Position numbers and translations under genes: made by a program. From Candidatus Aldehydirespiratoraceae bacterium (GTDB lineage Bacteria; Actinomycetota; Acidimicrobiia; Acidimicrobiales; Aldehydirespiratoraceae), in assembly GCA_965249055.1 (NCBI GenBank), contig CBDFKX010000002.1, forward strand, positions 1,613,800-1,677,799: DNA of 64,000 nucleotides, written 5' to 3'. The notes beneath the pieces are model-generated. The model was not told the DNA's origin and ran no database searches. It saw nothing but the letters and a program-made list of their open reading frames with translations. Of this stretch, positions 9,808 through 61,787 are shown piece by piece; positions within the stretch are counted from its first letter, which is position 1; each line of letters starts with the position of its first letter.

Positions 9808-9874
9808 GGCTACCCGGGTCATCGGCCGCCCGTTCTTACACGAACGAAAACCTCGAGAAAGTTGGAATGCTCAA

Positions 9875-10850
9875 ATGCCGTTATTCGATATGCCGCTGGA
9901 AGAGCTGGAGCGCTATCTGCCTTTCCGTGGCGAACCCAAGGACTTCGACAACTTCTGGAGCGAAACGCTCAGCGACGCGAGTACGGTGTCGTTGAATTCG
10001 GTGTTTACCCCCCGTCGACGCCGGCCTCCAAACAGTCGACGCCTACGACCTTGAGTTCTGCGGCTACGGCGGACATCCGGTCAGGGGTTGGTTCTTGTTG
10101 CCAAAGACGGCGCGTGGACCTCACCCGTGCGTCGTTCAGTATCTCGGGTACACGGTAGGTCGGGGCTCCTGTTTCGATTGGCTCTTGTGGCCCAGCCTGG
10201 GGTTTGCGTGCCTAGTGATGGACACGCGGGGGCAAGGGGGGTCCAACCATCATCCGGGCTCGACATCAGATGTCGCTCCGGCGGAGAGCGGCTCCTACGT
10301 GCCCGGGTTCATGACGCAAGGGATCTTGGATCCGCAGGCGTACTACTACCGACGCGTCTTTGTTGACGCGATTCGGGCGGTGAAGGTCGCGCAAGAGCAC
10401 GTTGCGGTGGATCCAGAACGCATTGCGGCGCTGGGTGCGAGTCAAGGTGGTGGAATCGCGTTGGCGGTTGCGGGTCGTGATCATTCCCTCAAGGTCGTTC
10501 TTCCGGACGTTCCCTTCCTCTGCCATTTCCGACGGGCAACCGATCTTGTCGATACGAAGCCGTATGCGGAAATAACGGAGTACTTGGCCGCTCACCGTGA
10601 TGCATCAGACGACGTCTTTCGGACGTTGTCCTATTTCGATGGGATGAATTTTGCATCTCGCGCTACGGCTCGAGCCGCCTTCTCCGTACGGCTAGCAGAC
10701 ACCACATGTCCGCCCAGCACCGTCTATGCAGCATTCAACCATTACGCCGGACCCAAGGAGATCGTCGTCTATCGCTACAACAACCATGAAGGTGGAGGGC
10801 CAGCCCAACGAGATTTGCAAGTCAAGCTCCTCCGCGAGGAGTTGCTCTGA
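9875..10850 (+). pseudogene. CE7 acetyl xylan esterase / cephalosporin-C deacetylase, frameshifted
   Basis: The N-terminus MPLFDMPLEELERYLPFRGEPKDFDNFW is in one frame. The remainder (GWFLLPKTARGPHPCVVQYLGY...MDTRGQG...GASQGGGIA...VPFLCHF...TLSYFD...CPPSTV...HEGG) is in another. The switch occurs at a C6 run (10008-10013), and removing one C restores VFTPVDAGLQTVDAYDLEFCGYGGHPVRGW. Confidence 0.85.
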
Positions 10851-18348: not shown

Positions 18349-18588
18349 CTTCAGACTCGCCGCCGGAAGTCGACGCTCTCTACGACGGAGTGACACGACT
18401 GCTTGACGCCCCCGACCCGTCAGGTCGCAAGGTGGGCGACTGCACCTGCGGCGTGTACCTGTTCATCGACTACGACGGCGAGCCGATCTACGTCGGCCAG
18501 ACCAAAGAGAAGCTCCGCGTCCGAATCCGCCGACACCTGACCAACCAGCGCACGGACGCCGTGGCCATGCGGGTGCTCGACCCGTTAG

Positions 18589-20238
18589 CCTGGATCCACC
18601 GGTGCGGTGAGGTTGTGGGGGTTGGCGCGTCCACCAGAAAGGCCTCCTGACGTGGGAGAATGCTGTTTGATGTAACGGTCATTCTGGCCACGAGAGGAGG
18701 CACTTCCTGTGAGGAGCGTAGCTGGTGGGATCGACGGGTTGGGGGCGGTGTTCGATGATGGGTCTTTGGTGGCTGATGCGGGGTTGTTGCTGGCGGGCAC
18801 GGTGATGTCGAGGCTGGGTTTGGAGGCGTTGATCGACGACACGGTGCGTCCGGGCGGGTCGGCGGGTTCGGGGGCGGGTCACAAGGTGCTGTCTTTGGTG
18901 GCGTCGATGCTGGTGGGCGGGTGCTGCATCGACGACGCGCAGCGGCTGCGGTCGGGCTCGGCGGCGGCGGTGCTGCCGTTCGCGCCGTTGGCGCCGTCGA
19001 CGCTGGGGACGTTTTTGAGGTCGTTCACGTTCGGGCATGTGCGCCAACTCGACAAGGCTCTGGAGTCAGCACAGATGCGGGCGTGGTCTGTGGGCGCCGC
19101 GCCGAGCGTGGCGGAGATGACGGTGGATCTGGACTCCACGGTGTGTGAGGTGTGCGGCAAGGCCAAGCACGGCGCCGCGTACGGCCACACCAAGGTGTTG
19201 GGCTATCACCCGCTGGTGGCGGTGCGCTCAGACACCGGCGAGGTGCTGCACTCGCGGATGCGGTCGGGATCGTCTCAGCGCGGCAACGTGCACTTCGCTC
19301 GTGAGACCCTGGCGAGGGTGCGGCGCCTGGCGGCGCACGCGGCGGTGACGGTGCGCGCCGATGCGGGGTTCTTCTCCTATGACATGATCGCGGCCCTCGG
19401 CGCCCACGGTGCGTCCTACTCGATCACGATCCCGCAGAACGCCAAGGTCAAAGCAGCCATAGCGGCCATAGACGACGACGACTGGGCACCGATCGCCTAC
19501 ACCCGCGGCGGCGAGGCCCAAGTCGCTGAGACCACCATCGAAGCCGGCCGCCGCGGCGACAAGCTCCACGGCGACGACGCCAAGCCCGCGAAGCTGCGGC
19601 TCATCGTGCGCCGCACCCGCCTGCTCGGCGCCCAAGGCGAGCTGTGGCCCAACTGGCGCTACCACTGCTTCGTCACCGACAGACACGACCTCGACACCAA
19701 AGCCGCCGACACCTACCACCGAGCCCACGCCACCGTGGAGCTCGCCATCAGAGACCTCAAAGAGAGCGCCGGGCTCAGCCGCTGCCCCTCAGGACGATTC
19801 CCCGCCAACGGCGCCTGGCTCGCCTGCTGCGTGCTCGCGCACAACCTCGCCCGCTGGACCGCCCGCCTCGGCCGCGCCCACCCCACGCGCCAACTCACCG
19901 TCGCAGCCACCATCCGCAACCGGCTCCTCACCGTGCCAGGCCGCCTCGTCAACCACAGCGGCCGCCACAGACTGCGCCTGCCGCTCAACTGGCCCTGGCA
20001 GAACACCTTCACCACCGCCCTGCAACGAATCCGCAACCTCCCCCTGCTCATCTGAGCCGCCGCTCAGCGCCCCGCGCAGCGCAGCCCAACCCCAAGCGCC
20101 ACCAACCCGCCACAGCCCCGCACTCCAGTCCCGCACGCCCCAAAACGCCCCAAAACGCGCCAGCCCGCACACACGCACCAGCCCAACGACCACCCGGCCC
20201 CAAACCGACGATCCCACAAACCCGTCGGTGGATCCAGG
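18589..20238 (+). mobile_element. IS1380-family insertion sequence, complete (1650 bp)
   Basis: There is a 13-bp perfect terminal inverted repeat, CCTGGATCCACCG. A 5-bp target duplication GTTAG lies at 18584-18588 and 20239-20243. Confidence 0.9.
18709..20055 (+). CDS. IS1380-family DDE transposase
   Basis: The 448-aa ORF has a GTG start and contains VDLDSTVCEVCGKAKHGAAYGHTKVLGYHPL, VRADAGFFS and YHRAHATVELAIRDLKE...PSGRFPANGAWL. Confidence 0.9.
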   Translation: MRSVAGGIDGLGAVFDDGSLVADAGLLLAGTVMSRLGLEALIDDTVRPGGSAGSGAGHKVLSLVASMLVGGCCIDDAQRLRSGSAAAVLPFAPLAPSTLGTFLRSFTFGHVRQLDKALESAQMRAWSVGAAPSVAEMTVDLDSTVCEVCGKAKHGAAYGHTKVLGYHPLVAVRSDTGEVLHSRMRSGSSQRGNVHFARETLARVRRLAAHAAVTVRADAGFFSYDMIAALGAHGASYSITIPQNAKVKAAIAAIDDDDWAPIAYTRGGEAQVAETTIEAGRRGDKLHGDDAKPAKLRLIVRRTRLLGAQGELWPNWRYHCFVTDRHDLDTKAADTYHRAHATVELAIRDLKESAGLSRCPSGRFPANGAWLACCVLAHNLARWTARLGRAHPTRQLTVAATIRNRLLTVPGRLVNHSGRHRLRLPLNWPWQNTFTTALQRIRNLPLLI

Positions 20239-20887
20239 GTTAGAGGTCGCGGAAGTCGAAATGTGGCCGTTCTGGGACTTGGAACCCAAAGACGCGGGCG
20301 ACCTCCTCGACCGCGCGGAATACACCGTCTATCAGCAAGCACTCTCCAGATCTAAGTTCAACGCCGTTCTCAACGAGGCGGAGATCGCCGAGACCGAGCC
20401 CATGGTCCTGCCGCCATCGGTGCGGGGAGCGATCCTGCCCAACGAGGCCCGCGAAAGACGTGAGCATCCCGACCTGCGGCTAACCCGCCGAGCGCGCACC
20501 ATCGCTGACCTCGCCAGAGTCATCAGCGAGCGACGGGTAAGCAACGGCATCAGGCGGACGCTTTCGGTTCAGGCTCGACGCCTCGAGCACCTAGCCCGGA
20601 AGCGACTCGAAGAACTGGACGGCCACAACGAGAACACGCCAGAAGAGCTCTGATCACCAAAACCCGAGACGGGTCCCAACACGCTCCATGGGACCTCGCC
20701 AGATTGAGCCGAATACCCCTTGCAGTACGACACCCGAGAAATGTCTATGTAGGCATAGCCCATAGTCTCGCTTCCTAGCTTGAGACCCGCCAGCCATACC
20801 GATGCGGCTCAGATCTCTACCGGTTGGGCCACCTCGGAGCTGCTGCGTTTGGGCATTCGCGGTCAGATTGCTGGAATAGGAACAGGA

Positions 20888-21829
20888 TCAGCCGAGGCAA
20901 CGTCTCAACAGATCGGTTAGCGGCTGTTGTAATGGATCTCTCCTAAATGCCCTCTCTGGTCTATGCGGGGGCACAGCCATTCTGAGTCGACGACGCAACT
21001 CGACAAGTGCGAGCAGATGCTCGGTTTGGATGTCACCGACGGCGACAATGAATGAGTCCTTCTTGTTGCTCGAAGTTGTCCAGGCGATCTGGAGGCTGAG
21101 CATCGTTGCCATCCACGCCGCACCTGACAAGACAGATACGCCTGTTTCAGCTACGCTCCATGCGCTGATCAGTATCAGCACAGCAGGGAACGTCAGGCGA
21201 CGTGCTGTACGTGACAACCACGACCTCCAGGTAACGACTCCGAGTGCGATGATGTGTCTGTGCAATCGGAGGTCAGCTAGCAGAATTGCCTTCCAAGCTC
21301 GGTTTACGTGGTTGTCGCCAGACGGCGGGTCTGGCAGTCTGAAGTCATCGCCAGATGCCGAGTCGAAGCCGCCGGCCGCGTCGATTTTGTCGAGTTCTGC
21401 TGCAAGCATGACAATGTCTTCTCGGCGATCGGCTCTGCACTTGTCTTGGCCGAACACCCAATGCCGTTCAGATCTCTTGCGAGGAACAATGCGAGACGTT
21501 TCAGCAATGAAATACTCGTTTGCGAGTTTGTCAAAGAAAGTACCATCTCGATAGATGGTCAGATCCTTTTTGAGTTGCTCCTCCAGAACCGCGTAGTTCT
21601 CTCTCTGCCGATATCTCTCTCGTTTTTGAACAAGTGCCTTTCGATTCGCGGCCCTGAGCTTCATGGGTGCCTCGACATACCGCTTCGATGCTTCTGCTGC
21701 GGCACGAATCTGCTCGGATGCGGAAGGCCATTGAGACGACGGACTTGGGGGTTCACCCGATAGGGCTGGACCGTCTGCTGCATCATCGCTAAAGGTAGCG
21801 TCGAAGGGATCTTCATTCTGCTGTGTCAC
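20888..21829 (-). CDS. hypothetical protein with two predicted C-terminal transmembrane helices
   Basis: The 313-aa ORF has lower GC. Its N-terminal half is charged and coiled. The hydrophobic stretches are FPAVLILISAWSVAETGVSVL and AAWMATMLSLQIAW. No family was recognised. Confidence 0.55.
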   Translation of the reverse strand: MTQQNEDPFDATFSDDAADGPALSGEPPSPSSQWPSASEQIRAAAEASKRYVEAPMKLRAANRKALVQKRERYRQRENYAVLEEQLKKDLTIYRDGTFFDKLANEYFIAETSRIVPRKRSERHWVFGQDKCRADRREDIVMLAAELDKIDAAGGFDSASGDDFRLPDPPSGDNHVNRAWKAILLADLRLHRHIIALGVVTWRSWLSRTARRLTFPAVLILISAWSVAETGVSVLSGAAWMATMLSLQIAWTTSSNKKDSFIVAVGDIQTEHLLALVELRRRLRMAVPPHRPERAFRRDPLQQPLTDLLRRCLG

Positions 21830-38642: not shown

Positions 38643-40289
38643 TCAGCGGGCGTGGTGGGGTGTTGATGTTTCGGGTACTTTGGATGCTTGGGCACGGGTA
38701 GCCCAGGGGAGATCGAATCGGGTTGGCGTGCGCGGGCCGTTGAGAATCCAACCAATAGGCGTGTAGCGGACGAACAACTGATAGCTGGCCAGCAGAATCG
38801 CAGTGGCGACCACGCTGATCCCAAGGAACTTGAGTGACGCCGGGAGGTCCCAGTCTCGGACCCAGTCCTGACCTGCGATTACCAGCGGCAAGTGCATCAG
38901 ATACAGCCAGTAGGCCGAGTCGCTCAGATAGCGAACGCCCGGTCGTTCGACCGCGAGGAAGCGGCGGGATAGTCCCATCAGGCCGACGATCATGGCCCAG
39001 GCGAACGTGACCTGAAGCGCTGCGGCCACAGGCCAGATCGGGTCATCTGCGTAGGTGACGCCGAGCGCTATGGGCAACACAATGATGACCGTCAGTGGTA
39101 ACAGGACTGTCCAGTGGCGTCCGATTGTGTCAACAAGCAGCTCACCTGCGTGGTTACGTCTGTTGTACATGAGCGCCCCGAACCCAAAAAAGACGGCGTA
39201 GTAGGCAAGGACGTGAAAGTCGGGTACGAGGGCGGTTGACGTGTCGGGTCCGAACACTCGGAATTCGCCCCACTCACCCATTCGGAGTTGCGGAAGGAAC
39301 GTGAATGGGACGAGCAACCACATAACCGTCCAAGCGACACGATCAAGCGGGATTCGATCCGCGAAGGAGCGTTCCAAGAGCTCGACGATTCTCGCCACTA
39401 CGACGAAGCCGACCACGAACAAGCACAGGAACCACAGGAACCACAAGTGGTGGAAGCTCGTAATCCATGTTTCGGGCCCCTCGAAACCGTCGTCGTCGGC
39501 AGCCTCGTCCGTTTTGGGCGCGTCTTCGGCGCCGAAAGCCCACCATGGGACATCGTCCCAGTCCTGGCCCCCCACCCGCGGGTCGGGCGCTTCCGCCGCG
39601 ACGAGCAGGTCAGCGGCTTCCTCGTTGCCGAACACGAAGGTTGAACCCACAGGCGTGTTGCCGGCGTAGTCGACAACGGTCGGGTCCGCCCCGGCTTCCA
39701 ACAGCAGCCTCACCACCTCCGGATCACCCATGAACGCCGCCCAGTGCAGGAAGGTGCCGCCGTCCTCGCCGCGGCTATCAAGGTCGGCTCCGGCCTTGAT
39801 AGCCCTTAGCGTCGCTTCGGAATCACCTTCCGCGATCGCAACGAAAAGGGCAGTCCCCGGGTCGTCCGGTCGATCAACGGCCCGCTCGACGACCCAGTCG
39901 ACCAGCGGCACGATCGTCACAACTCCGATCGCCAACGGCACGGCGATCCGCTTGACTCTTTGACCCAGCAGTGATGACATGCCCCGACGACGCCACACCA
40001 TCACGGTGAAGAAGCCAGACAGCAAGAAGAACAAGGGCATGCGGAAGCCGTGTACGGCGAGGAAGAACTCGTCGTAGCCCGCGTCGAGGTCGGCCTTGTT
40101 GTCGGTTACCGCCCAGAAACCGGGAAAGAAAGACAGCGACGCATGCAGTCCGATTCCCAACAACATCGCAAACCCGCGCAAAGCATCGAGGTCATGGCGT
40201 CGTTTTCCACTTGCTGGTGTCGCATCGGGCGAGGTCATGGTGTCGGCCGCGATGGGCTGTGTCATCGAGTGTTTGTCTAGCATAGACAC
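38643..40289 (-). CDS. acyltransferase family 3 membrane protein with an inserted ankyrin-repeat module
   Basis: The acyltransferase_3 N-terminal signature is DALRGFAMLLGIGLHA...FRMPLFFLLSGFF, with several C-terminal TM helices. Residues ~148-232 (39594-39848) match the ankyrin consensus (GGTFLHWAAFMGDPEVVRLLLEAGADPTVVDYAGNTPV). Confidence 0.8.
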   Translation of the reverse strand: MSMLDKHSMTQPIAADTMTSPDATPASGKRRHDLDALRGFAMLLGIGLHASLSFFPGFWAVTDNKADLDAGYDEFFLAVHGFRMPLFFLLSGFFTVMVWRRRGMSSLLGQRVKRIAVPLAIGVVTIVPLVDWVVERAVDRPDDPGTALFVAIAEGDSEATLRAIKAGADLDSRGEDGGTFLHWAAFMGDPEVVRLLLEAGADPTVVDYAGNTPVGSTFVFGNEEAADLLVAAEAPDPRVGGQDWDDVPWWAFGAEDAPKTDEAADDDGFEGPETWITSFHHLWFLWFLCLFVVGFVVVARIVELLERSFADRIPLDRVAWTVMWLLVPFTFLPQLRMGEWGEFRVFGPDTSTALVPDFHVLAYYAVFFGFGALMYNRRNHAGELLVDTIGRHWTVLLPLTVIIVLPIALGVTYADDPIWPVAAALQVTFAWAMIVGLMGLSRRFLAVERPGVRYLSDSAYWLYLMHLPLVIAGQDWVRDWDLPASLKFLGISVVATAILLASYQLFVRYTPIGWILNGPRTPTRFDLPWATRAQASKVPETSTPHHAR

Positions 40290-50482: not shown

Positions 50483-51333
50483 CCGAGGACAACCTCAACC
50501 TTGGCTGTGTCATCCGCGTTCGCTGTGTCTTCAACTCCGGTGGCAATGGCCAGCAGTTGACGGAGCATCGCTCCGGTGGCACCCCAGACAGTGTCGCCAA
50601 CCAGTTCAAAAAAGGTGATCGCCCTGGGCCTATCGAACTGGGGCAAAGGCCAGAACTCCTCGCGCCACACGTCGTCTGAGAGTAGTTCGCGAAACGAGAC
50701 ATGACGGATCAGTTCCACTTCGATCGGGTCTCGTTTCAGGGTCGGTTTCTGATCGGTGACTGCCACGAACGGGGTAACCAAAGTTGCCGAACCAACAGTC
50801 ACGAAGCTGTCCAGTTCACCGATCCGTCGAATCGTCGAGGGATCGATTCCGACTTCTTCTTGTGCTTCACGCACAGCAGTTGTCCAAAGGTCGGCATCGC
50901 CTGATTCGCGGCGGCCACCGGGAAACGCGACTTCGTGAGCGTGGTGACGCAAGCGTGGCGAGCGCCTTGTCAAGACCATGTAGACATCGTCTGAGCGTTC
51001 GTACAGCAAACAAAGCACGGCGCTATGGCCGATGCCTTCGCTGACTGTGCCCACCAATTGTGGAGTCCTACTGCGAGAGAATGCCGTGGTGATATCGGAG
51101 AGGGTGACCCGGCGATCTCGGCTGGGGATATGCGCCCAGGGTGCTGGCCCACCCATCTTTGCGCCCTCGGGGCGTGGTATTTCCTGAGGGCCACCCCGTC
51201 CCGCGGGAATCAGAGCAAACGGTTCGGTCTGCGGGGTCTCAAGCGAAGACGCATTGGCGTGATCGGTTGTCACCGCATCGACGCTATCCGCCCAAGCCCT
51301 GTATTGGGCTAGAGCTGCGCGGCTAGACGCCAA
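50479..51333 (-). CDS. Nudix hydrolase (CoA pyrophosphatase-like)
   Basis: The Nudix box is [24 protein letters not shown]. There is a ~100-aa N-terminal extension, so an internal start is possible. The ORF overlaps the guaA start by 4 nt. Confidence 0.8.
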
Positions 51334-51357
51334 ACTGACGAACGTGCATGGCTCCGC

Positions 51358-51703
51358 TCAGCCGGGGATGTCGAGGATCAGGCCCAGGACTTCGCGGATC
51401 TGTGCGAGGCGGGCCGCTCCGACATTGCCGAGTCGGTCCTCTATTCGACCTGTGGCTACCGCTCGGACATGCTGGCACTGGGCCGCCGAGCGGAGATCGA
51501 GACCGTTGGAGGGATCGGCGTCGAACCGTCACCTCCGAGGCGAAGCCGCGCACCCGTGAACTAAGCGGCACCACCTGCACGACGGAGACACCGCCGTCGA
51601 TAACTCGCTGAGCGGTCATGACCACCCCCGGATGACGGAAGCCAGCCTCGTGCCCCGTCGGCGCGCCCAGATCGATCATGACGACGTCACCCGAGGTCAG
51701 CAT
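51358..51703 (-). pseudogene. MazF/PemK-family toxin, frameshifted
   Basis: The N-terminus GDVVMIDLGAPTGHEAGFRHPGVVMTAQ...VVQVVPLSSRVRGFASEVTV lies in one frame. The hand-translated continuation RFDADPSNGLDLRSAAQCQHVRAVATGRIEDRLGNVGAARLAQIREVLGLILDIPG-stop lies in the +1 frame. The switch is near 51524-51530. Confidence 0.75.
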
Positions 51704-51893
51704 CGAGCCATGCAGTCTCGGCTTCGCTCAGATCGGCCCGCAGGTCGGCACCCATCCGGTCCTGGCGCAGGCATCGCACCGCGATCGCAACGGTGTCACC
51801 CACGGTGGCTCCCAACTCAGCCGCGAGCCTCTTGAGTTCTTGGTGGGTGGAGACATCTATGCGGACACGCGCGTGAACGCGGAGCGGCCCGGG
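51687..51893 (-). pseudogene. RHH-type antitoxin-like ORF without a canonical start codon
   Basis: Hand translation gives (PGPL)RVHARVRIDVSTHQELKRLAAELGATVGDTVAIAVRCLRQDRMGADL...LDADLG-stop. The 3' end overlaps the mazF-like start by 17 nt. There is no ATG, GTG or TTG between the upstream in-frame TAG (51894-51896) and the RHH strand. Confidence 0.5.
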
Positions 51894-51985
51894 CTAAAGA
51901 CCTAGACCGCTGTTTTGGTTGACACTGGATATTGTTCTTGAGGCTTTGCTTGGTCGCGCTTGAGATCTGGGAGGAGTTGTCAAAT

Positions 51986-54211
51986 ATGAGCACAACGACA
52001 AACCGCGAGTTGTGTCGGCAACTGGTAAAGGCGGAATCAGAGAGCGAAGCGATCCAGGTCTTGCGCGAAGCAGCGCTGTGGGATGACATAGATTGTTGGA
52101 CTCCGCTTGGGGGGATCGATAACAATTACGGAACGATCATCAATCAACAGGCCTCCAGGGAAGCTGCGCTTGCCGAAAAAATCACCAACAGCATCGACGC
52201 GAGGCTCATGGCCGAATGTCGGCGGGTCGGGCATGATCCGGAGGCGTCGCTAACGAAAGTCGGTACTGAGATGCCGACTAACCCAGCTGATGCTGTCGAC
52301 TTGTTCGGTTGTAGCTGGAAGCGTGCAGACGAGACTGTTGACGGGCTGAAGGATAATGCACTGACATCCCATGCCCAGAAAATCGCGCTTGCGGTGACCG
52401 GGAGAAAAGGTTCGCACCCTGCGTGCGTCTCGGTAGTGGACCAAGGAGAGGGTCAGACACCGGATAGCTTCCCAGACACGTTCTGTTCCATCCATCAGAG
52501 CAACAAGAACAAGGTCAAATTCGTGCAAGGCCGTTACAACATGGGCGGCACGGGGACCCTTCGATTCTGCGGTGACCAGGGGATCCAACTAATTGTGTCC
52601 CGACGTGACCCAGCGTTTGGCGAGCATCCTGCCTGGGGATTCACGGTGTTCCGCAAGCTCCCTCCGGCTCCTGACGAGCGCAATCCCTATTGGGCCTATC
52701 TGGTTGCTCCGGCGGATGGCAGGGATGGAACGCCGTCAGGTCGGATAATCCGGTTTGTTGCCGATCGAGTAAAGCTACTGCCAGGAGGTGCCACCGACGG
52801 TGGCCAGCGACGGCCGTGGACCGTGCCGGTAGGCCACGGCACGTTGGTGAAGCTCTACGACTTCATTAAAGCTGGGAACGCTTCCGATACCCGTTCTTCG
52901 GGAAGGTCGATGTCACTGGCTGCCCGACTGGAAATTGAATTGGTAGATCCTGCGCTGCCCTTTCGGGTGCATGAATGCCGCTATCCGGATTCAAAAGGGA
53001 ATTCCACGGTGAATTGTGTAGGGCTGGTCAACAGATATGCACCAAGGCGAAGCCGACAATCGTTGGAGGACAGTTTTCCGTTCACTGCCAAGCTGACAAG
53101 TCCTTCTGGCGTCAAGCCCTCAGGACAGCAATTCAGTGTCGCCGTTTATGCCTTCAAACAGGGACAAGACGGACGTGCACGCGGCGCTGAACGTCGCCGG
53201 GCTGAGCACGCGGTGGCCTTCACCGTCAACGGACAGCTCCACGCAGGCTGGCACTCGCGGTTCTTCAAGAGGAAAGGCGTAGACCTTTCACTCTTGGCCG
53301 ATGATCTACTGGTGGTGGTCGACTGCTCGAAGCTGTCCGATGAGGGGATCAGGCACCTCTTTACCGGGGGGCGAGACAGAATGATCGACGATTCAGCGCT
53401 CAAATCATGGGTCGAAGATGAGTTGATAGATGTGCTCAATACCGACCGGCGACTCCGAAGCCTCCACCACGCTCGACTTGAAGCTAAGCGAAAAAGCGAG
53501 CGGGGCAAACGAGCCGAGGCAGCCGCCGAGATCGTTCAGAAGTTGCTGGCTGCCAACAAGCAGCTGTCCGAATTTTTGGCAGGAGGCGTGCGGCCCTCGA
53601 GCCAAGGGCCGGTTGGACCCGGGCTTGTGAGTGAGCCCAGAGAGTTCCTCGGAAATGACCCTCCAACCTATTTCAAGTTGAGAGGCAAAGACCGGATGAA
53701 CGCCCAGATCAGTAAGCCCTGCTCTGTTTCGTTCACGACCGACGCGGTGAACGGGTACTTCGATCAGGGTCAGCACTGTTTGACGTTGGATAAGCACCCA
53801 ACGCCCCTCATCCGTGAGTCTCTGCACGATGGTCGGGCCAGCGTTCGGTTTGAAATGCCCGAGAGTTCCGCTGCGGGAGATCACATATCCGCTCGGCTCG
53901 AATCATCGGGTCCTGGACTGCTCGATGCTTTCGTCAACGAGTTCACCGTGGTTGCTATTGAGCATAGGGAAACGACTCCCGGACCCGAGGTTCACCCAAA
54001 CCCTCCAGCCGGGTTTGATTTGCCTGACGCTCATGAAGTCCGAAAACGCGATTGGAAAAGGGAAAAATTCACAGAATGGACAGGCGCCCGCCTCATCCCC
54101 GATGCGGATCCCTCCCAGAACCTGTGGCAGTGGAACTACGACCACCCATTCCTAGTAGACGCCTCTCCCGGAGGCCAGGGACAAGCCCCAGGTCCAAGAG
54201 ATGTTGAATGA
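51986..54211 (+). CDS. GHKL (Bergerat-fold, MORC/MutL-like) ATPase with a ~500-aa uncharacterised C-terminal region
   Basis: ATG at 51986 lies 9 nt after GGGAGGAG. The N box reads E-KIT-N-SI-DA, the G1 box VVDQGEGQ and the G2 box GRYNMGGTG. A coiled-coil-like segment (ARLEAKRKSERGKRAEAAAEIVQKLLAANKQL) lies downstream, and the rest was not recognised. Confidence 0.8.
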   Translation: MSTTTNRELCRQLVKAESESEAIQVLREAALWDDIDCWTPLGGIDNNYGTIINQQASREAALAEKITNSIDARLMAECRRVGHDPEASLTKVGTEMPTNPADAVDLFGCSWKRADETVDGLKDNALTSHAQKIALAVTGRKGSHPACVSVVDQGEGQTPDSFPDTFCSIHQSNKNKVKFVQGRYNMGGTGTLRFCGDQGIQLIVSRRDPAFGEHPAWGFTVFRKLPPAPDERNPYWAYLVAPADGRDGTPSGRIIRFVADRVKLLPGGATDGGQRRPWTVPVGHGTLVKLYDFIKAGNASDTRSSGRSMSLAARLEIELVDPALPFRVHECRYPDSKGNSTVNCVGLVNRYAPRRSRQSLEDSFPFTAKLTSPSGVKPSGQQFSVAVYAFKQGQDGRARGAERRRAEHAVAFTVNGQLHAGWHSRFFKRKGVDLSLLADDLLVVVDCSKLSDEGIRHLFTGGRDRMIDDSALKSWVEDELIDVLNTDRRLRSLHHARLEAKRKSERGKRAEAAAEIVQKLLAANKQLSEFLAGGVRPSSQGPVGPGLVSEPREFLGNDPPTYFKLRGKDRMNAQISKPCSVSFTTDAVNGYFDQGQHCLTLDKHPTPLIRESLHDGRASVRFEMPESSAAGDHISARLESSGPGLLDAFVNEFTVVAIEHRETTPGPEVHPNPPAGFDLPDAHEVRKRDWKREKFTEWTGARLIPDADPSQNLWQWNYDHPFLVDASPGGQGQAPGPRDVE

Positions 54212-54431
54212 AAGGTTTAAGCACTCGATGCTTGTAATCGGCCTCTCCGCCTTGAGCGCATACGCAGCTGCGCAAGACGAGGCGAAGAAGTCCGAAAACG
54301 AAGAGTCTTCAGCGCAACTCGGGCCTGCCGATTGGGTTGCCGTAGCAACCGATGCACTTGCCCCAGTGGTGTTCGCGATAATCGAGTTCGGCGAGGCGAT
54401 CACTGAGACACACTTGGAAGCTGGTGACTAG
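54201..54431 (+). CDS. 76-aa hypothetical protein with two hydrophobic segments
   Basis: The ATG overlaps the ATPase stop by 11 nt. The hydrophobic segments are MLVIGLSALSAYAAA and WVAVATDALAPVVFAIIEF. Its stop shares a CTAG tetranucleotide with the convergent gene's stop. Confidence 0.35.
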   Translation: MLNERFKHSMLVIGLSALSAYAAAQDEAKKSENEESSAQLGPADWVAVATDALAPVVFAIIEFGEAITETHLEAGD

Positions 54432-55216
54432 TCAGATTTGTCGGCCTGCTCGGGTAGCACGGCCATCCAGCAGACCACGCCGATGTCGTCCTCGGTTATC
54501 TCCGGGGTTGGCGCGGAGGTGTCGATGTCGCGCAGGCCGTAGAACTCAACCAGGTCGATGATCTGCCGGGCTGCTTCGGTCGGGTTCATGGCTTCTCGAT
54601 CGGTTTCACGCCTGATGTTGCCGAGGGCTCGCCGAATCTGGCTCCCTCGTTCGATTTCTAGGGCTTCATATGCAGCGCGGGCCGCTGCGATTGAGGACAC
54701 GTCGGGGTGGTCGAGCACTTCGCGGGCCCACTGCTGGGTTGAGCCGAGCGAGTGTCCAGCGAGGTGATCTGCATCGTCGTTGTGCTCTTGGATGATCGAT
54801 GCAGCCGCAGCCGACCAAGCAGCCTCCAAGTCGATGGGAGGGTCGCTCACTCCGGATGCCTGTCCAGGGTTGATGCGACGCAGGATCACCGGCGGTGCCG
54901 AGGCGATGTCGCCTCGGTTGGTGATGTAACGCCAGTGTCTTTCGCTGTCACGGGTTCGGCAAGCGAAGAACACGCCCGCTGGTCCGACTGATGGGACGTC
55001 AGGTCCCTGGACGAAGGCTGCGCCCACACCCCAGGGCAGTTCTCGAGCCCTGTTCAGCTCACCCTCGGCACCGGCTCGGCGCAGTTCCGCTCTCAGCAAC
55101 TCCGCGCTAAGGGCTTGCGGCATTCCCGCCGCGCCGGATTCATCGATCAGCGAGATGTCGCCCTCAGCCAATCGACGGGCGTAGGACTGGATCTCCTCGT
55201 CTACGTCCCCCTCCAC
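54428..55216 (-). CDS. 262-aa protein of unknown function (a separate gene, or the detached C-terminal domain of the helicase)
   Basis: The GTG start at 55216 overlaps the helicase stop region by 16 nt inside a GTGTGG context. No motif was recognised. Confidence 0.5.
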   Translation of the reverse strand: MEGDVDEEIQSYARRLAEGDISLIDESGAAGMPQALSAELLRAELRRAGAEGELNRARELPWGVGAAFVQGPDVPSVGPAGVFFACRTRDSERHWRYITNRGDIASAPPVILRRINPGQASGVSDPPIDLEAAWSAAAASIIQEHNDDADHLAGHSLGSTQQWAREVLDHPDVSSIAAARAAYEALEIERGSQIRRALGNIRRETDREAMNPTEAARQIIDLVEFYGLRDIDTSAPTPEITEDDIGVVCWMAVLPEQADKSD

Positions 55217-57605
55217 ACTTCTATCTCCATCCCGTAGGGGCGGGCCGCCACGATCTTGCGGCGGATGGCTACTTCGAGACGTAATAACCTCTCCAAGTCG
55301 CCCTGCTCAGGCAGCATGGTGATTAGCGACACCTCCCGGTGAGGACTCTTCAACCTGACCACACGGCCATACCGCTGCACCACCCGTTGAGGGTTCCAGG
55401 GCATGTCGTAGCTGATCACCGCGGCAGCCTGTTGAAGGTTCTGCCCCTCGGAGAGGACGTCGTTGCCCAGCATCAGGTCCACTTCGCCGTCGGTCGGTTC
55501 GTAGCCTGGATGAACCACCGTGTCGGGACAGAAGCGCGCCAGTAGCCGGGTGCGCTCATCGGGGTTCGTCTCAGCACCGATCACCGTAACCCGGTCGCGA
55601 CCGTTCACTCGATCGGGCAAGTGATCGTTGATGTAGCGTACGGTGTCGGCGAACGCGGAAAAGACGAGCACCTTCTCCGACGGGGTCTCTTCGAGCAGGC
55701 ACCGCAGCAGGGCGAGTTTGGGGTCGTCGGCGTTCTGGAGCGAACCCAACGCCTCCGCGACCGCTTGCAGGCGTCGGCGGTCTGCATCTACACGGTCACG
55801 GTAGCCGGGTTTGAACCGGCTGACCGGTTCGCTGTCCTTCTCGTCCAGGCTCTCGGACAACCATTCGCTCAATCCGGTCTCGTCGAGGTCGGCTGATGCT
55901 GCCTCGGTGAGCGCATCTCCGCTGAGCACCCGACCCTGATCCCAAGCGTTGAGAAACGCATCGTGGGCGGCGATCATTCGATCGATGGTGAGTAGGCAGG
56001 CATACCAACATGACTCGAACCGCTTGAGCACCGCGGATTGCAGCAGCGCGCTGAGGCTTGCCTCGCGCCCAGCGGTCTGCTCGTCGAGCGGTAGGAGCTG
56101 GGCCGGTAGCGGGCCATGGTCAGATCCTCGATGTTGGTGGTGATGGCTCGGACCAAGCCCGGGTAGGACGCATCGAGGTCGTACCGCTCGGTGGACAGAA
56201 CCGGGGTTGGGAACGCCACCTGAGTTCCGTCGGGGAAGAATTCGTTGCTGTAGTGCTGTTCGATGAAGCGTCGATCTCGTCGGACGCTCACCATGTCGGC
56301 CAGGGAGAACAGCACATCTGGATTGAGGTTCTCGGGGTCGCGTTCGTTTGCTCCGGCCCGGAGGAACAAGCGGCTCAGCGAGGGAATACCGTGGGAGGCG
56401 AACGCCCGGTCGTGGTGGGCGAAGGACATGACCAGGTGGTAGAGGTCCCACAGCCCGTTGTTGATGGGGGTGGCGGTCAGCAGGGCAAGGTCCTTCTGCT
56501 GCCCACCGAGCAGCCTCGCCGCTGCCCGGTACCAGGTCGTGTCCGGGGTGCGCAGAGCGTGCCCCTCGTCCATCACAACCAACCGGTACACATCCTTGTC
56601 GCTGTTCAGGTGGCGACGGGCGTTGGCGGTACCAGGCCTCACCAGTTGCTCATCGGCGGCCAGTTGGTGGTAGCTGACCACCTGGGCGGGTAGTCGAGCT
56701 TGATCCAGTCGCCGCTGCCAGTGGCTGACGAGCTGGGCGGGTGCCACCACTAGGGCATGGGAGCCCCGGCGCAGGGTGTACTCCTCGATGAGGGCGAGTC
56801 CGATCTCGGTCTTGCCGGTGCCCACTCCGTCGGCGTAGATCACTCCATGGTGCGCTTCGATGATCTGAAGAGCCCGATGAAAGCCGTCTCGTTGAAAACT
56901 GGTCAGCTCCACGGCATCGGGTATCGGCCCTTCGAAGTGGTCGTTTTCGGGGCCCAGCAACTCCAGCAGTGCTAAGAGGTAGACCTCACGGGGGCTCAGT
57001 AGACCCACGGATGGGAACAGAAGGTCCTGTAGGTCGGATTTGAAGTCTTGGGCGTCGTTCCAAAGGCGATCGAACCATTCGATGGCTTGCTTTGCCACCG
57101 AAGGGTCGTACTGCACTAAACCCAATTCCAAGTTGCTGAACAGGCCTGCGCCTGTGAGGTTCGCCGAGGTGACCAATGCGGCGCGGGCGTCGTTCCGGTT
57201 GCCGAACAGGTACGCCTTGCCGTGGAGGAACCGGTCGGTGTAGCGCCGCACCTGCACTTCGGGCCGTGCCAGCCACTCGTCGAGGCGGGCCAGTTTGGCC
57301 GCGGACCGGCTGGGTGGGAATCTGGCCAGGTCACGGTCGGCGCGTAGCCCCGCTAGGGCCAGTTCGAAGTGGGAGATTGGAATTTGGGCACCCAGGCCGG
57401 GCGCTGGTGCAACTCCGAGCAGAACGCGGACAGTGCGCTCGTCGGCCACCGCGGTTGCTGTGTGGTGGAGGCCCTCGAGGTTCACATACCCGGTGGCGAT
57501 GGACAACCCATGGCGGACGGCAAAATCGTCGAACAGATAGGAGAGAGCGCCGGCGTGCCGGTTGCCGTCGCTCAAATTGTCGATCAAGTGCGGGCGACCG
57601 GGCAT
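55201..57605 (-). pseudogene. PLD(HKD)-nuclease::SNF2-family helicase fusion, frameshifted
   Basis: The N-terminal PLD-like module reads FLHGKAYLF...LVTSANLTGAGL. The helicase motifs read DGVGTGKTEIG, VVMDEGHALR and LLTATPINN. The C-terminal lobe, in a second frame, reads VLVFSAF, GNDVLSEGQNLQ and VISYDMPWNPQRVVQRYGRVVRL. The frame switch lies near 56095-56110, between MARYRP and QLLPLDEQ. The ATG at 57603-57605 overlaps the MTase stop (TGATG). Confidence 0.8.
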
Positions 57606-60600
57606 CAAGTCAGCTCGCGGAAGTGGTTGGTGATGGCATCTCGGTACGCCGGAGGCACTGCGTCGGTGGTGAAGTCCTTGAACATGATCTGGAGGTCATC
57701 GACGGTCAGTTTCCAGGCCAGGGCTACTCGGGCGTCGATTTCCACCAAGAGTCGCTGACGTTCTTGCTCGGAGAGTGGCCCGTATTCGACGCCAGTAGCA
57801 GCAGCGAAATCAGCGAATCGCTCGTCAACGGCCGATAACCGAGCAGCGGATTGCGCGATCTCGGCGAAGCCCTCGTCCTCGAGATCGGGGACGATCAGGG
57901 ATTCTAGAATGAAAAAATTGAGGTGTACCTCGACGAAACGCCGGGCCTGCCAGTCGAACGGCAGGCTGTTCATGATGCCCAGACATGTGGCTTGTGTTTG
58001 CGCATCTCCGTCAACGAAAGCCAGGTACGGTGCGGTGTTGGTCAAGAACACCTCGGGGGCGACCAGGCAGGCTCTTACCGTCCTGCTGTCATCGGATCGG
58101 GAGACATCTCGAAAGGCCACCCGAGCCCTATCGAGCTCAGCCATAACCGCTTGGCGACGATGTTTCCTCAGTGCGGACTTTGCCAGCATTGACGACTCTC
58201 CTGGCCGCGGTTTGCTGACCTTCTTCCGGACTGCGTCGCTGGGTGGGCACAGTCTGGCTCCGGCACCGTGGGGGTCGTACTGGTCGAAGCTCTCGCCCTT
58301 CCACAACGGCCAGCCGTCAGATGCATCGCTCCACAGGTGCTTGTCGTTGGTCTCATCGAGATCTCGCACCGGGAAGCACCGCCACCGTCCTGGGGACCCT
58401 TGTGTGACAGCTGACCCAAGCGGGAAGGGTGACCCTACTCGGAGCTTGTCCAGAAGGTCGGCCTCGTCCTGCGAACGGAGCCGGGGTGTCATCCAGCCCG
58501 CGCCGAACAGGGTTGGGGCCAACAGGATCCCCGGTGACAACGACTGGTCAGCCCACGACTCGACGGAATAAGCGGTCGCCGCCAGAGCCACTTCATGGTC
58601 ATCGTTGGGAGCGCGTTGTTCGGCCACCACAAGAGCGACGCCGTATTGCGGGTGTGTGTCAAACATCCAGAGTCGCCGATTGATCAAAAAGTCGATCCGC
58701 CGAGCCGAGATGGACTTGAACAGCCACTCGCGGAATCCCTCAGAGCCCTGGTTCACAAACGCCGCCCGAGGCAACACGACGCCTATAGAGCCGTCGGAGC
58801 GAACCAGAGACTTGTAACGCTGACAGAAGTACTTGTACAGGTCAGGGTCGCCCCTGGTGGACTCGTATTCCCCGGAGGCCAGCGCCGCTCGCTCGGCGGA
58901 AGCTCGGTCCTGCTCGCTGTCAAGCCGTGCGACCAACTCGGGACGCTCGCGCTTGAGCTCGGCCACCGCCGTGCCGCGTTCGCTCGCCGACATACCATGT
59001 AGGCCGGGAAGATGCAGTCCGTAGTGGGACAACTCCTCGACCACGACCTCCTCCCATGGGGGATTGCCCACCACCACGTCGAAGCCGGAGGCACGGTCCC
59101 GACCAAACACCCGTGGGAATGTCAACGGCCAGTGCAGGAAGCAGTGGGTGCGGCCCAGTTCTGTGGCGCTCCCAACCAGTGTTCGTCCGATGCGGCCGTT
59201 GGTACCGGAAATCACCTCCGGGCCATGGGTTTCGGCGTGGTCGCGAGCGCCCTTGAGTCCGAATCCCTCCGCAGTCCACAGGTCGAACAGCCGTTGCAGG
59301 CCCTGGGTAGCCTGTTGAGCCTCAAGATCGGCGGCTCTGCTGGCGTTCACCTCGGTCGGGTTGAGGTCGTCGATATCGGCCAACCTGGCCGCCGCCTCGG
59401 CGGCCCCGGCCAGGGCGGTCTGCAAGGCATCAGCTTGGAATGTGCCCTCTGGGATCACAGTCCCGGCACTGGCCACCCCGATCAGAGAATTGCCCACCAC
59501 CACATTGCGGTCCAGGTAGGCCAGCGACAGTCCGGGGACGAACGATGCCAACCACAGCGACAGGGTGGCGATCTCTGCGCCCATGGGACTGCGATCAACG
59601 CCGAATACGCAGTGTTTGAGTACCAACCTTCGTAACAACGCCACGTCGGTGACAGCCGACCCCATCTGGGTGCTTTCGCGGAGCCGATCCAGTGCCTCCC
59701 GCACCGCTGGGAGCGGGTGAGCGGCCAAAAAGGCGACCGTCTGATCGGCCAGTTCCTCGGTGACCTGAACGAGAAAATGAGCGCTGCCGCATGCTGGATC
59801 CAACACCGCGAAATCGAACAGGTCTCGGGCAGCCTGCTCTGGATCGGTGTTGATCTGTCGACGCACCTGTTCAAGGTGGTTCTCGAAAGCGGGCCTCACG
59901 GTGTGGCGCACCAAGTGTTCAACCAACAAGGCAGGGGTGTAGTACACACCGCCGGCCTTTCGGCCTCCTTCATTGGTCAGCCACAACAGTGCCCCGTCGG
60001 AAACCCTGGATTCGTCCCCGTCCGCATCTCGCTTGATGGTTTTGTTGTCGGTCGCTGGTTGGCCTTGGTCTGGAACGTACCGGTCTTTCTTTACGTCGTA
60101 GCGCAACGGCCGGTCAGCTACCGACAGCCGCAGGCTGAGCAGCGCCTCGTAGATGTGACCTAGGTGACCGACCTCCAGCGACGAGTAGTCGACACCGTGC
60201 CCGGTTTCGGTATCACGCCCCACGGCCAACAGCACGCGGGCGAAGTGGGGGTCGGCCAGTTCTAGGCGTTCCAGCAACTCAGCCCCCTCGAAATCGGCCG
60301 CCGCGAACAGGGCGCCGTTGTAAGCAGGCACCCCCCAGGCCGGGTTGCCGTCGCGTAAGGCACCCACCAAGATCATGAAGCTCTTCCACAGAGCCGTTGA
60401 TTCCAGGCTCAACCGGCTCTTGGTTTTGTGGGCTTCGGCCACTAGTTCGGTGAGTGAATGGCACCGGTAGGTCTCGTTGTCGACCGGCAGAAAGTGGGAG
60501 CTCTCGGCGTACAGCACAAACAGCAGCCGAAACAACAGTGTCAATGACGCCCTCTCCAACTCCAGCCGGTGTCCGTCGTCACTGGTGTCGAGGCCACTCT

Positions 60601-61618
60601 GGTGGGTCCAATAATCGAGCCCCTCGGCAAGAGCGGGCAAGGCGTCTTGGCGGATGGTGTGGTCGAGCCGCTTGCGTAGTTCGGCGCCGAAGGCCTCGGC
60701 CTCGGTTTGGAGTTCAGCCAGTCCCCCTTCGGCCAGGTAACGGGGGGAGAGCAGAGCTAGATAGGGGCGGTTCTGTTCGCCGAGCAGGTCTGCGTCGAGA
60801 TCGAGCCACTCCCCCGTGGTGGCCGACGGGTCGCAGTCGAACAGTCGATATCGGTCGCGTGAGACCATGATGCCGTAACGAACGCCGTGTCGGCGACAAT
60901 CCGAAGCCAACAGGCCCTCGGCGGGTCGGCCCATGTCGTCCACCCGAACGAAATTCTCAGGTGTTGCCCAGGGATGGACCATCGCCACAGGCTGATCGTT
61001 GAATCGCAACAGATAGCCCCGTTGGGGGAGCCTGTCGATTCTGTAGCCCATCCCGTCGAGCAGCGTCTGCCAGTGGCCGATGATCGCAAGGTCCCGCGTG
61101 GTCTCCTGAGCGACCCGCCAACGCTCGGGATTGTTTCGGAATCGAGCCTCCAGCGTGTGATGAGTCAGTAGACCGTGAACAACCTTGCCTCGTCCGGCCA
61201 ACCGGACGACCTCACGAGCCAGATGCTTGACTGCATCAAGGCTGTGCATTTCAGCGGTCTCCTCGATGGCTGTGGACGACTTGGCGCAGTCCACCGAACG
61301 GATGGGTTCGTTGAAGGTGCGCGGTCCGAGCGCGCGGACACTGTCGGGATTGGCGGGGTCGTCGATAACCAGCAGGTAACGGAAGTCCATCCGGTCGGCA
61401 TGTTCGCGCCAGCGGGCTCGCAGACTACGCTCGCTGGGCCTTTCGGCGATGGCCACCTCGATCTTGTTGACCCGCACCGACCGTTTTATACCGGACCGGT
61501 TGGGCATCTCCCGTGCGATTCCACGGCCCATCAGCCGGTTGAGCAGGTCGTCGGCGTTCACCGAGTTCAACTGTACCTGTACACGGCGATGTGCGAAGAC
61601 ATCTGTGACTGTGGACAT
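57605..61618 (-). CDS. 1337-aa gamma-class N6-adenine DNA methyltransferase with its own target-recognition domain (Eco57I/PglX/DrmMI-like architecture)
   Basis: The ORF contains GGVYYTP, FAVLDPACGSAHFL (motif I), VFGVDRSPMGAEIATLSLWL and FDVVVGNPPWEEV (motif IV). Its TaqI_C/TRD-like C-terminus reads TNTAPYLAF...LGIMNSLPFDWQARRF. The N-terminal ~330 aa were not recognised. Confidence 0.85.
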   Translation of the reverse strand: MSTVTDVFAHRRVQVQLNSVNADDLLNRLMGRGIAREMPNRSGIKRSVRVNKIEVAIAERPSERSLRARWREHADRMDFRYLLVIDDPANPDSVRALGPRTFNEPIRSVDCAKSSTAIEETAEMHSLDAVKHLAREVVRLAGRGKVVHGLLTHHTLEARFRNNPERWRVAQETTRDLAIIGHWQTLLDGMGYRIDRLPQRGYLLRFNDQPVAMVHPWATPENFVRVDDMGRPAEGLLASDCRRHGVRYGIMVSRDRYRLFDCDPSATTGEWLDLDADLLGEQNRPYLALLSPRYLAEGGLAELQTEAEAFGAELRKRLDHTIRQDALPALAEGLDYWTHQSGLDTSDDGHRLELERASLTLLFRLLFVLYAESSHFLPVDNETYRCHSLTELVAEAHKTKSRLSLESTALWKSFMILVGALRDGNPAWGVPAYNGALFAAADFEGAELLERLELADPHFARVLLAVGRDTETGHGVDYSSLEVGHLGHIYEALLSLRLSVADRPLRYDVKKDRYVPDQGQPATDNKTIKRDADGDESRVSDGALLWLTNEGGRKAGGVYYTPALLVEHLVRHTVRPAFENHLEQVRRQINTDPEQAARDLFDFAVLDPACGSAHFLVQVTEELADQTVAFLAAHPLPAVREALDRLRESTQMGSAVTDVALLRRLVLKHCVFGVDRSPMGAEIATLSLWLASFVPGLSLAYLDRNVVVGNSLIGVASAGTVIPEGTFQADALQTALAGAAEAAARLADIDDLNPTEVNASRAADLEAQQATQGLQRLFDLWTAEGFGLKGARDHAETHGPEVISGTNGRIGRTLVGSATELGRTHCFLHWPLTFPRVFGRDRASGFDVVVGNPPWEEVVVEELSHYGLHLPGLHGMSASERGTAVAELKRERPELVARLDSEQDRASAERAALASGEYESTRGDPDLYKYFCQRYKSLVRSDGSIGVVLPRAAFVNQGSEGFREWLFKSISARRIDFLINRRLWMFDTHPQYGVALVVAEQRAPNDDHEVALAATAYSVESWADQSLSPGILLAPTLFGAGWMTPRLRSQDEADLLDKLRVGSPFPLGSAVTQGSPGRWRCFPVRDLDETNDKHLWSDASDGWPLWKGESFDQYDPHGAGARLCPPSDAVRKKVSKPRPGESSMLAKSALRKHRRQAVMAELDRARVAFRDVSRSDDSRTVRACLVAPEVFLTNTAPYLAFVDGDAQTQATCLGIMNSLPFDWQARRFVEVHLNFFILESLIVPDLEDEGFAEIAQSAARLSAVDERFADFAAATGVEYGPLSEQERQRLLVEIDARVALAWKLTVDDLQIMFKDFTTDAVPPAYRDAITNHFRELT

Positions 61619-61724
61619 GACTTCCCGCTTCGGTCTAGATCAAATAGGGGAAGCTGAAACCTAATATAAAGGTATGAAAACCAATTGCAACTGTTGATTA
61701 TCACCGTGTTCGATGAACGCGGAA

Positions 61725-61749
61725 CGGTTCGGGCCAAAGACCCGGACCG
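61725..61749 (-). terminator. hairpin downstream of groEL (candidate intrinsic terminator)
   Basis: cggttcggg(cc)aaa(ga)cccggaccg forms a ~9-bp GC-rich stem, including one G:U pair, ~40 nt after the groEL stop. The U-tract is weak. Confidence 0.4.
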
Positions 61750-61787
61750 CTCTTTGAATTACCGCAGCTAACACGCTGGGCCGGGCA

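Follow-up and report, generated by a model that had tools for sequence, protein, structure and literature searches.

A GHKL ATPase gene and a methyltransferase-helicase pair between guaA and groEL of an Acidimicrobiia bacterium: probably two separable restriction-modification-like modules in a decaying defence slot

In a Candidatus Aldehydirespiratoraceae bacterium (Acidimicrobiia) the housekeeping genes guaA and groEL are separated by a compact block encoding a GHKL (MORC/Hsp90-like) ATPase, an SNF2-type helicase with an N-terminal PLD (HKD) nuclease domain and a large N6-adenine DNA methyltransferase. The block lies in a stretch of 64,000 nucleotides (nt) of contig CBDFKX010000002.1 (assembly GCA_965249055.1, positions 1,613,800 to 1,677,799 of the forward strand), referred to here as the window, from whose first letter all positions are counted. 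An original prediction, made from the letters and their translations, had interpreted the block as one restriction-modification (R-M)-like defence system of five or six tightly packed genes. The R-M-like character of the genes was upheld in the analysis reported here; their number and their unity were not. By our reading the block consists of only three genes, and frameshifts have broken two of these, because two open reading frames (ORFs) of 76 and 262 amino acids (aa), previously taken for a coupled small gene and for a gene of unknown function, are the C-termini of the ATPase (about 816 aa) and of the helicase (about 1059 aa, with a conserved C-terminus), cut off by deletions. The block probably represents a variable defence-island slot with two separable modules, the ATPase gene and the methyltransferase-helicase pair, and appears to be decaying in this genome.

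The window's insertions and deletions (indels) were mapped against L001, a locus from another metagenome that is 90.5% identical, has the same flanks and encodes an 816-aa ATPase, a single 1059-aa PLD-SNF2 helicase and a 1342-aa methyltransferase. In the nucleotide alignment the window has a 5-nt deletion near 54163, which splits the ATPase gene into an N-terminal ORF of 741 aa (51986-54211) and the C-terminal ORF of 76 aa (54201-54431), and 1-nt deletions near 55215 and 56088, which split the helicase gene into ORFs of 544, 416 and 262 aa. Homologues of the ATPase are about 816 aa long and end in what is here the 76-aa ORF (for example MLNERFKHSMLVIGLSAL... in P0001). One helicase frameshift had been recognised before; two further fragments had been mistaken for separate genes. 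Every motif quoted in the prediction is present in the ORF translations, and Pfam supported the domain calls, TaqI_C excepted (see below): HATPase_c_3 in the ATPase (2.1e-7), PLDc_2 (also matched as RE_NgoFVII) followed by SNF2-rel_dom and Helicase_C in the helicase ORFs, and Eco57I (6.1e-16) plus N6_Mtase and MmeI_Mtase in the 1337-aa methyltransferase. The positions of all features are collected in Table 1.

Table 1. The three genes between guaA and groEL, their junctions and the features at their borders.
Feature	Position	Strand	Basis
GHKL (MORC/Hsp90-like) ATPase gene, frameshifted	51986..54431	+	Pfam HATPase_c_3, homologue length, L001 alignment
PLD(HKD)-SNF2 helicase gene, broken into three ORFs	54428..57605	-	Pfam, single gene in L001
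Gamma-class N6-adenine DNA methyltransferase gene (Eco57I/Type IIG-like), intact, 1337 aa	57605..61618	-	Pfam, PADLOC
TGATG stop/start overlap, methyltransferase-helicase coupling	57603..57607	-	sequence read directly
CTAG, overlapping tail-to-tail stops of the convergent ATPase and helicase genes	54428..54431	.	sequence read directly
42-nt hairpin-like direct repeat, left copy	51874..51915	+	repeat pair, 83% identical
42-nt direct repeat, right copy, immediately 3' of groEL	61714..61755	+	repeat pair
MazF/PemK-like toxin remnant at the left border	51323..51703	-	Pfam PemK_toxin

In the ATPase the Bergerat motifs for ATP binding, with residues E64, N68 and D71, the D152-x-G-x-G motif and the G182-G190 lid, are invariant among 30 homologues. 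An AlphaFold model of an intact homologue with 97% identity (predicted local distance difference test score, pLDDT, 79.9) consists of the GHKL domain, a middle domain, a long coiled coil, an immunoglobulin (Ig)-like sandwich and a C-terminal helical hairpin. Foldseek matched this model to HtpG, MORC3, SMCHD1, TRAP1 and MORC2 over approximately 450-500 columns (E 4e-8 to 1e-6), with low TM-scores of 0.29-0.49 by target, as expected for flexible multidomain models. No nuclease domain could be recognised in the ATPase by Pfam, in the AlphaFold model or by Foldseek, and no PADLOC or NCBIfam model matches the protein.

The ATPase family is large. A profile search found 1,286 clusters at 50% identity (E<=1e-30), and a genome scan of 80 loci, 74 of them distant (L010-L083), found it in many bacterial phyla and in methanogens. 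A gene for an N6_N4_Mtase of about 400 aa is present in 44 of the 74 distant loci, in 40 of them at most 181 nt downstream on the opposite strand, so that ATPase and methyltransferase genes stand tail to tail (for example in L022:10001-13768, in L013:10001-13636 and in L016 from Roseobacter cerasinus AI77). Among the 30 distant loci lacking this gene, six lie on contigs that end too soon to tell, and the others have seven more R-M-type ORFs nearby (six DNA methyltransferases and one single-polypeptide Type I (Type ISP) enzyme). The genes upstream of the distant ATPases vary. Some of them contain an Mrr_N winged helix, which was considered as a shared upstream feature and rejected: an iterative search with a hidden Markov model found it in no more than 4 of 41, so that the partner upstream is heterogeneous. 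On plasmids the relatives of the ATPase are partial matches only (N-terminal approximately 460 aa), all annotated as hypothetical. An ATPase with 53% identity to that of the window (L087) still has an N6_N4 methylase nearby; anywhere in the window itself this partner is missing. Because most of the family is convergent to a ~400-aa N6_N4 DNA methyltransferase, the ATPase probably serves a different R-M-like pair as its non-methylase arm, and ATPase plus N6_N4 methyltransferase form an unnamed candidate R-M-like module. In a literature search no experimentally studied prokaryotic defence system composed of a GHKL protein plus a methyltransferase was found.

The methyltransferase contains motifs I and IV (LDPACGSAHF and GNPPW), and a protein identical to it (P0121) is present in public data; a sequence search of the PDB gave nothing useful. 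The TaqI_C-type target recognition domain ascribed to it was not detected by Pfam even at E<=1, and its C-terminal region matched only TIGR02987, the C-terminal part of Alw26I-family methylases (8.5e-18, far below the cut-off). This part is presumably the specificity region. Compared with L001, identity is lowest, at 67-80%, at residues ~961-1200, and the number of synonymous substitutions per site (dS) is 0.41 for the methyltransferase versus 0.15 for the helicase, divergence that suggests diversification or exchange of a specificity domain.

Could the 1337-aa protein be a self-contained Type IIG enzyme with a nuclease of its own at the N-terminus, in which case the PLD-SNF2 protein would be an accessory or a one-gene defence in its own right? 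REase_MTase_IIG (PDLC03620, 3.7e-115) is indeed the PADLOC model that matches best; the match, however, covers residues 267-1317, beginning at profile position 274, and leaves the N-terminal part unmatched. The N-terminal ~330 aa, described as unassigned in the prediction and still so, are conserved among homologues; residues 1-340 have no Pfam match even at E<=1, and 25 homologues have no invariant lysine in the N-terminal 330 aa. A model of this region (pLDDT 80) weakly and non-significantly resembles the PD-(D/E)xK folds of Hjc, the HsdR N-terminal domain and PvuII, none of the Foldseek matches having E<0.03. In addition, the helicase gene directly follows the methyltransferase gene at every locus examined, mostly with overlapping stop and start codons, over a range of 30% to 87% methyltransferase identity. 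A self-contained Type IIG nuclease thus finds no support in profile searches, structure model or conserved residues and we consider it very improbable, in line with the prediction that the methyltransferase has no recognisable nuclease motif.

In 16 homologues of the helicase the H128-G-K130 and S147-A-N149 motifs of the PLD domain are invariant, as are GTGKT, DExH and motif VI, and much of the sequence of the C-terminal domain of about 260 aa is invariant in the family. Since the N-terminus of the methyltransferase has neither a nuclease signature nor a significant fold match, the PLD domain appears to be the only credible nuclease of the block, which agrees with its earlier designation as likely effector: it is the sole recognisable nuclease, and its H-x-K and S-x-N residues do not vary in the helicase family. 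The best PADLOC match of the N-terminal piece of the helicase is C3a139 (2.9e-28).

The stop/start coupling of the methyltransferase and helicase genes by TGATG, seen already in the original prediction, is present. The same head-to-tail adjacency was found in L001, L084, L085, L086, L090 and plasmid loci. Homologues of both proteins, with about 1300 aa (methyltransferase) and 1050 aa (helicase), are numerous, and across the two lists of the top 120 homologues 30 clusters have a longest contig of equal size. A homologue of the GHKL ATPase was sought within 7-8 kb of the pair at five loci, and all five have the pair without it: L084, L085 and L086 (methyltransferases 69%, 64% and 55% identical to that of the window), L090 (helicase cluster labelled Gemmatimonadota in NCBI) and L091 (a metagenome-assembled genome (MAG) of Gammaproteobacteria). 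Full-length relatives of the pair with ~30-34% identity are encoded on plasmids of Mycobacterium gallinarum, Rhodococcus erythropolis R138 and the archaeon Halorubrum lacusprofundi, where the gene for a PLD-SNF2 "helicase-related protein" is directly preceded by that for a protein of 1321-1375 aa, hypothetical in RefSeq and Eco57I by Pfam. The Mycobacterium protein, the one that was aligned, covers the methyltransferase of the window from residue ~53 onward (BLASTP).

Beside the pair in L086 (6142-7874 and 15590-19011) and L090 (687-2640 and 13757-16339) there are neighbours of the defence type; the neighbours of several distant pairs include OLD-type AAA_15/AAA_21 proteins (with TOPRIM or DUF3226), GmrSD_N, HNH, AAA_13 and toxin-antitoxin genes. 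L086 and L090 thereby have the look of typical defence islands.

We take the pair to be a widespread, uncharacterised two-gene R-M variant resembling Type III and Type ISP systems and the defence island system associated with restriction-modification (DISARM), a variant that has already been glimpsed in the literature. The methyltransferase would read a DNA site via its variable C-terminal part and methylate the host DNA. Its partner, to judge from the conserved catalytic residues, would be a PLD nuclease with one HKD motif, joined to an SNF2 ATP motor and followed by a C-terminal domain that is likewise conserved; on unmethylated foreign DNA it would translocate and cut. Since a single HKD motif makes up half an active site, it would probably do so as a dimer.

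Whether the ATPase belongs to the same system was examined by comparing genomes. The co-localisation of ATPase, helicase and methyltransferase genes is not conserved, and the proposal of one system is therefore unsupported. In none of the 74 distant ATPase loci is a helicase or methyltransferase of the window type found within 10 kb, and in the scan of 80 loci the two adjoin the ATPase gene only in five close Acidimicrobiia relatives. Conversely, all more distant contexts examined, namely the five loci named above and the three plasmids, have the pair but no ATPase. ATPases 75-78% identical to that of the window stand alone in L002, L088 and L089, and on contig OZ220687.1 both modules are present in one genome, 2 Mb apart (the ATPase at L058, the pair at L085). 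A slot of Acidimicrobiia between GFA/IclR and MTTB/RACo genes behaves like a defence-island hotspot: L005, L007 and L009 carry all three genes there, L088 and L089 just the ATPase gene, and L085 just the pair. On one side of this slot there are GFA, IclR and ETF genes, on the other MTTB, RACo and pterin-binding genes, and the version with the pair also has toxin-antitoxin genes.

The two parts of the block also differ from each other in composition, the G+C content being 0.572 for the ATPase gene and 0.627 for the pair. The prediction had described the block as AT-richer than its flanks. This holds for the ATPase gene, which belongs to the lowest 2.3% of equal-sized windows, and for the spacer at 61620-61700 (0.38), but not for the helicase plus methyltransferase stretch, whose G+C content is above that of the window (0.606, approximately 60.6%); AT-richness of the whole block is thereby ruled out. 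In the clade of Acidimicrobiia to which the window belongs the ATPase would have lost its N6_N4 partner and now adjoins the methyltransferase-helicase pair.

Several observations weigh against two separable modules. Among the 10 loci of one Acidimicrobiia clade, 7 have retained the trio (the window, L001, L004, L005, L006, L007 and L009). Its flanks there are of two kinds, guaA/groEL and GFA-IclR/MTTB, and the convergent 4-nt overlap of the tails of the ATPase and helicase genes is also present in L001, L004, L005 and L009. Between the intact loci L009 and L001 all three genes are under purifying selection, with ratios of nonsynonymous to synonymous substitution rates (dN/dS) of 0.12-0.17. In the window the trio is bracketed exactly by two copies of a 42-nt direct repeat, 9840 nt apart, which suggests that the three genes can move or be kept as a block; the repeat has two matches only in the window versus 0 expected, L001 carries the right copy alone, and the pair of repeats may be the trace of an insertion or recombination at the groEL terminator. 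Since the ATPase family is generally tied to DNA methyltransferases, with which it is linked in most loci, the large methyltransferase could be a replacement for the lost partner of the ATPase. Moreover, the R-M-like function of these proteins, activity included, is predicted, and the R-M mechanism of the pair is one that we infer from domains and gene order.

From these observations a true three-component system can be construed for the Acidimicrobiia clade, in which the ATPase swapped its small methyltransferase for the large methyltransferase/helicase operon and works with it, for instance by clamping or looping DNA at the expense of ATP and so licensing the PLD-SNF2 nuclease, a role of the kind that Iyer et al. 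(2008) suggested for operons of MORC and SF2 helicase genes; neighbourhoods of MORC/paraMORC, SNF2 and methylase genes have been predicted before (PMC2292703). We regard this as unlikely, because it has to accommodate an ATPase that stands alone at 75-78% identity, a pair that stands alone in every more distant context, a hotspot that takes either module singly, the unequal G+C contents, and ATPase and pair genes that are convergent, not co-transcribed; in L006 and L007 there is even an extra ORF between the ATPase and helicase genes.

Eukaryotic MORCs clamp or compact DNA. If the prokaryotic family did likewise, it could be the effector of a nuclease-free, methylation-guided defence that clamps or compacts unmethylated DNA, and the partner swap in the present clade would make a true three-part system. 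To this we give a low probability. We prefer two separable modules, both of which are uncharacterised variants of known R-M-like designs that are adjacent in a hotspot.

The second question is whether the locus of the window is alive. Relative to L001, the methyltransferase gene has in-frame indels only, and its length and those of the flanking genes (lactamase-B-like, thioesterase, guaA and groEL) are equal to those in L001, whereas the ATPase has one frameshift, by which the last ~90 aa are lost, and the helicase two. For each of the three genes dN/dS versus L001 is 0.17-0.18. This value, together with the unchanged lengths of the neighbours, indicates that the lesions are recent or else assembly errors. 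ATPase and helicase look recently inactivated. With both lost, the methyltransferase that is left intact would become an orphan methylase, as is usually the final outcome when R-M systems decay; the locus is probably a dying R-M system that leaves an active orphan adenine methylase.

The frameshifts could also be errors, which would speak against decay. The locus would then be intact and functional, and all three frameshifts would be due to assembly or basecalling. There is no sign of long relaxed selection in dN/dS, and related contigs stem from long-read metagenome assemblies, some of low coverage (L087, in which the ATPase is also fragmented, has 3x). One of the lesions, however, is a 5-nt deletion, none of the three lies in a homopolymer run, and the frame-breaking indels are all located in the 5.6 kb of the ATPase and helicase genes, out of ~15 kb of comparable coding sequence; the chance of this is roughly 1 in 20 if errors are distributed uniformly. 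An intact locus is therefore rather unlikely, and decay remains our preferred explanation.

To the left of its trio L001 contains an AbiEii-like gene (9245-9972) without counterpart in the window (51473-51985), which has the MazF remnant instead. To the right of the trio L001 has a gene for an AAA_14/DUF4143 ATPase (19759-21033), for which the window likewise has no counterpart (61619-61713).

That no named, experimentally characterised system has this gene set was confirmed for the known systems with which the two modules were compared. Class 1 DISARM (DrmD, DrmMI, DrmA, DrmB, DrmC) shares with the pair an SNF2 helicase, a large Eco57I-type adenine methyltransferase and a PLD nuclease, and the PADLOC models of DrmMI, DrmD and DrmC match the corresponding regions. 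The scores are low, with 83.6 bits versus a cut-off of 610 for NCBIfam DISARM_DrmD and 37.2 versus 133 for DISARM_DrmC_I; PADLOC DrmMI (PDLC02643, 5.5e-68) matches the catalytic core only (residues 527-855) and fits much less well than the Type IIG model. Here the SNF2 protein carries the PLD domain as an N-terminal fusion, in DISARM it is a separate protein, DrmC, and the unit of the window consists of two genes. DISARM was ruled out because DrmA and DrmB are missing, as the prediction had stated: DUF1998 is found neither in the block nor in the other window ORFs of at least 450 aa, all of which are housekeeping or have no Pfam match.

With Type III and Type ISP systems the pair has in common the mod-then-res order, the translational coupling, a nuclease linked with an ATP-dependent SF2 motor, and a methyltransferase with presumed target recognition, whose C-terminal part diversifies between close relatives. 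In those systems, however, the motor is of the ResIII/Mrr type with a PD-(D/E)xK nuclease, which is C-terminal in the Res subunit of Type III enzymes, and the Mod subunit of Type III enzymes belongs to the N6_N4 (beta) class; here the motor is of the SNF2 type with an N-terminal PLD domain, and the methyltransferase is a gamma-class, Eco57I-type, Type IIG-like protein of 1,300 aa with an extra conserved N-terminal region. Type IIG enzymes resemble it in that a single large polypeptide comprises the methyltransferase as well as the part for target recognition.

Cj0031-like Type IIG loci with an adjacent PLD+SNF gene were listed by Milman et al. (2023, PMC9881135, Table 3), and C3a139, an 'HKD+Snf2' cluster in the vicinity of type III CRISPR loci, by Shah et al. 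(2018, PMC6546367). This combination of two genes was mentioned there in passing, and in composition the pair of the window is like it. Neither publication named or tested the pair or gave it a function or mechanism.

Hma, the components of which are DUF3883/SNF2, DUF1156 and DUF499 proteins (with the AAA+ ATPase HmaC and the methyltransferase HmaB), and the systems related to bacteriophage exclusion (BREX-related, BR) (PMC8565338; PMC11232893; PMC12839542) resemble the block by combining, in name, a helicase, a methylase and an ATPase. In BR type 2 the effector is even an SNF2 helicase that carries an HKD nuclease at its N-terminus, like the helicase of the window. However, the ATPase of these systems is a DUF499 AAA+ protein and their methylase is of the DUF1156 type, versus a GHKL ATPase and an Eco57I-type methylase here, and BR type 2 adds DUF3780. 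Hma was ruled out, the PADLOC models of its ATPase and methylase finding no match.

In 2008 Iyer, Abhiman & Aravind (PMC2292703) predicted MORC/paraMORC ATPases in R-M neighbourhoods, a minority of which have methylases and no helicase. The ATPase of the window resembles these in its GHKL plus middle (S5-like) module, its sporadic distribution in bacteria and archaea and its neighbourhood to DNA methylases. It differs in that the dominant partner of its family is a small N6_N4 methyltransferase and no SF2 helicase, and in its C-terminus of coiled coil, Ig-like domain and helical hairpin, without a nuclease. A conserved neighbourhood with an SF2 helicase or nuclease was not found for the family, a helicase being adjacent only in the narrow Acidimicrobiia clade. 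Also VcSduA (Shedu type I-D, paraMORC3; PMC12137116) is a defence protein with an N-terminal GHKL ATPase; it has a C-terminal DUF4263 PD-(D/E)xK nuclease, for which there is no equivalent in the ATPase family of the window.

The housekeeping flanks were identified correctly in the prediction. Profile searches found on the left a gene for a protein of the metallo-beta-lactamase fold, an acyl-acyl carrier protein (ACP) thioesterase gene, guaA and a NUDIX gene, and on the right groEL and groES. The PemK/MazF remnant at the left border, which is outside both modules, has half the normal length (PemK_toxin, 7e-6, profile positions 2-60 of 109). A search of the window revealed no tRNA gene at the borders of the block. 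The closest relatives of the window are Acidimicrobiia MAGs, several of them sponge-associated (Candidatus Poriferisocius and Candidatus Poriferisodalis).

Far from the block the window contains two tRNA-Arg(CCT) genes (4678-4751 and 5599-5672), 921 nt apart and different in one base, which could be the trace of a duplication or of an integration site. An ORF of 548 aa at 38643-40289 on the minus strand matches Acyl_transf_3 in two stretches, most strongly at residues 32-133, and then has ankyrin repeats (~143-207), which would fit a host-associated lifestyle as a sponge symbiont. The GC-richest 2 kb of the window are at 18001-20000 (0.679 versus 0.606 overall).

The methyltransferase-helicase pair looks like the minimal core of a DISARM-like or Type III-like restriction system. 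It is compact and widespread, occurring in Actinomycetota, in other bacterial phyla and on haloarchaeal plasmids, and among its carriers are the cultured organisms Rhodococcus erythropolis R138, Mycobacterium gallinarum JCM 6399 and Halorubrum lacusprofundi ATCC 49239. The ATPase family, which is closely tied to a small DNA methyltransferase and has no recognisable nuclease, could show what the prokaryotic relatives of MORC do.

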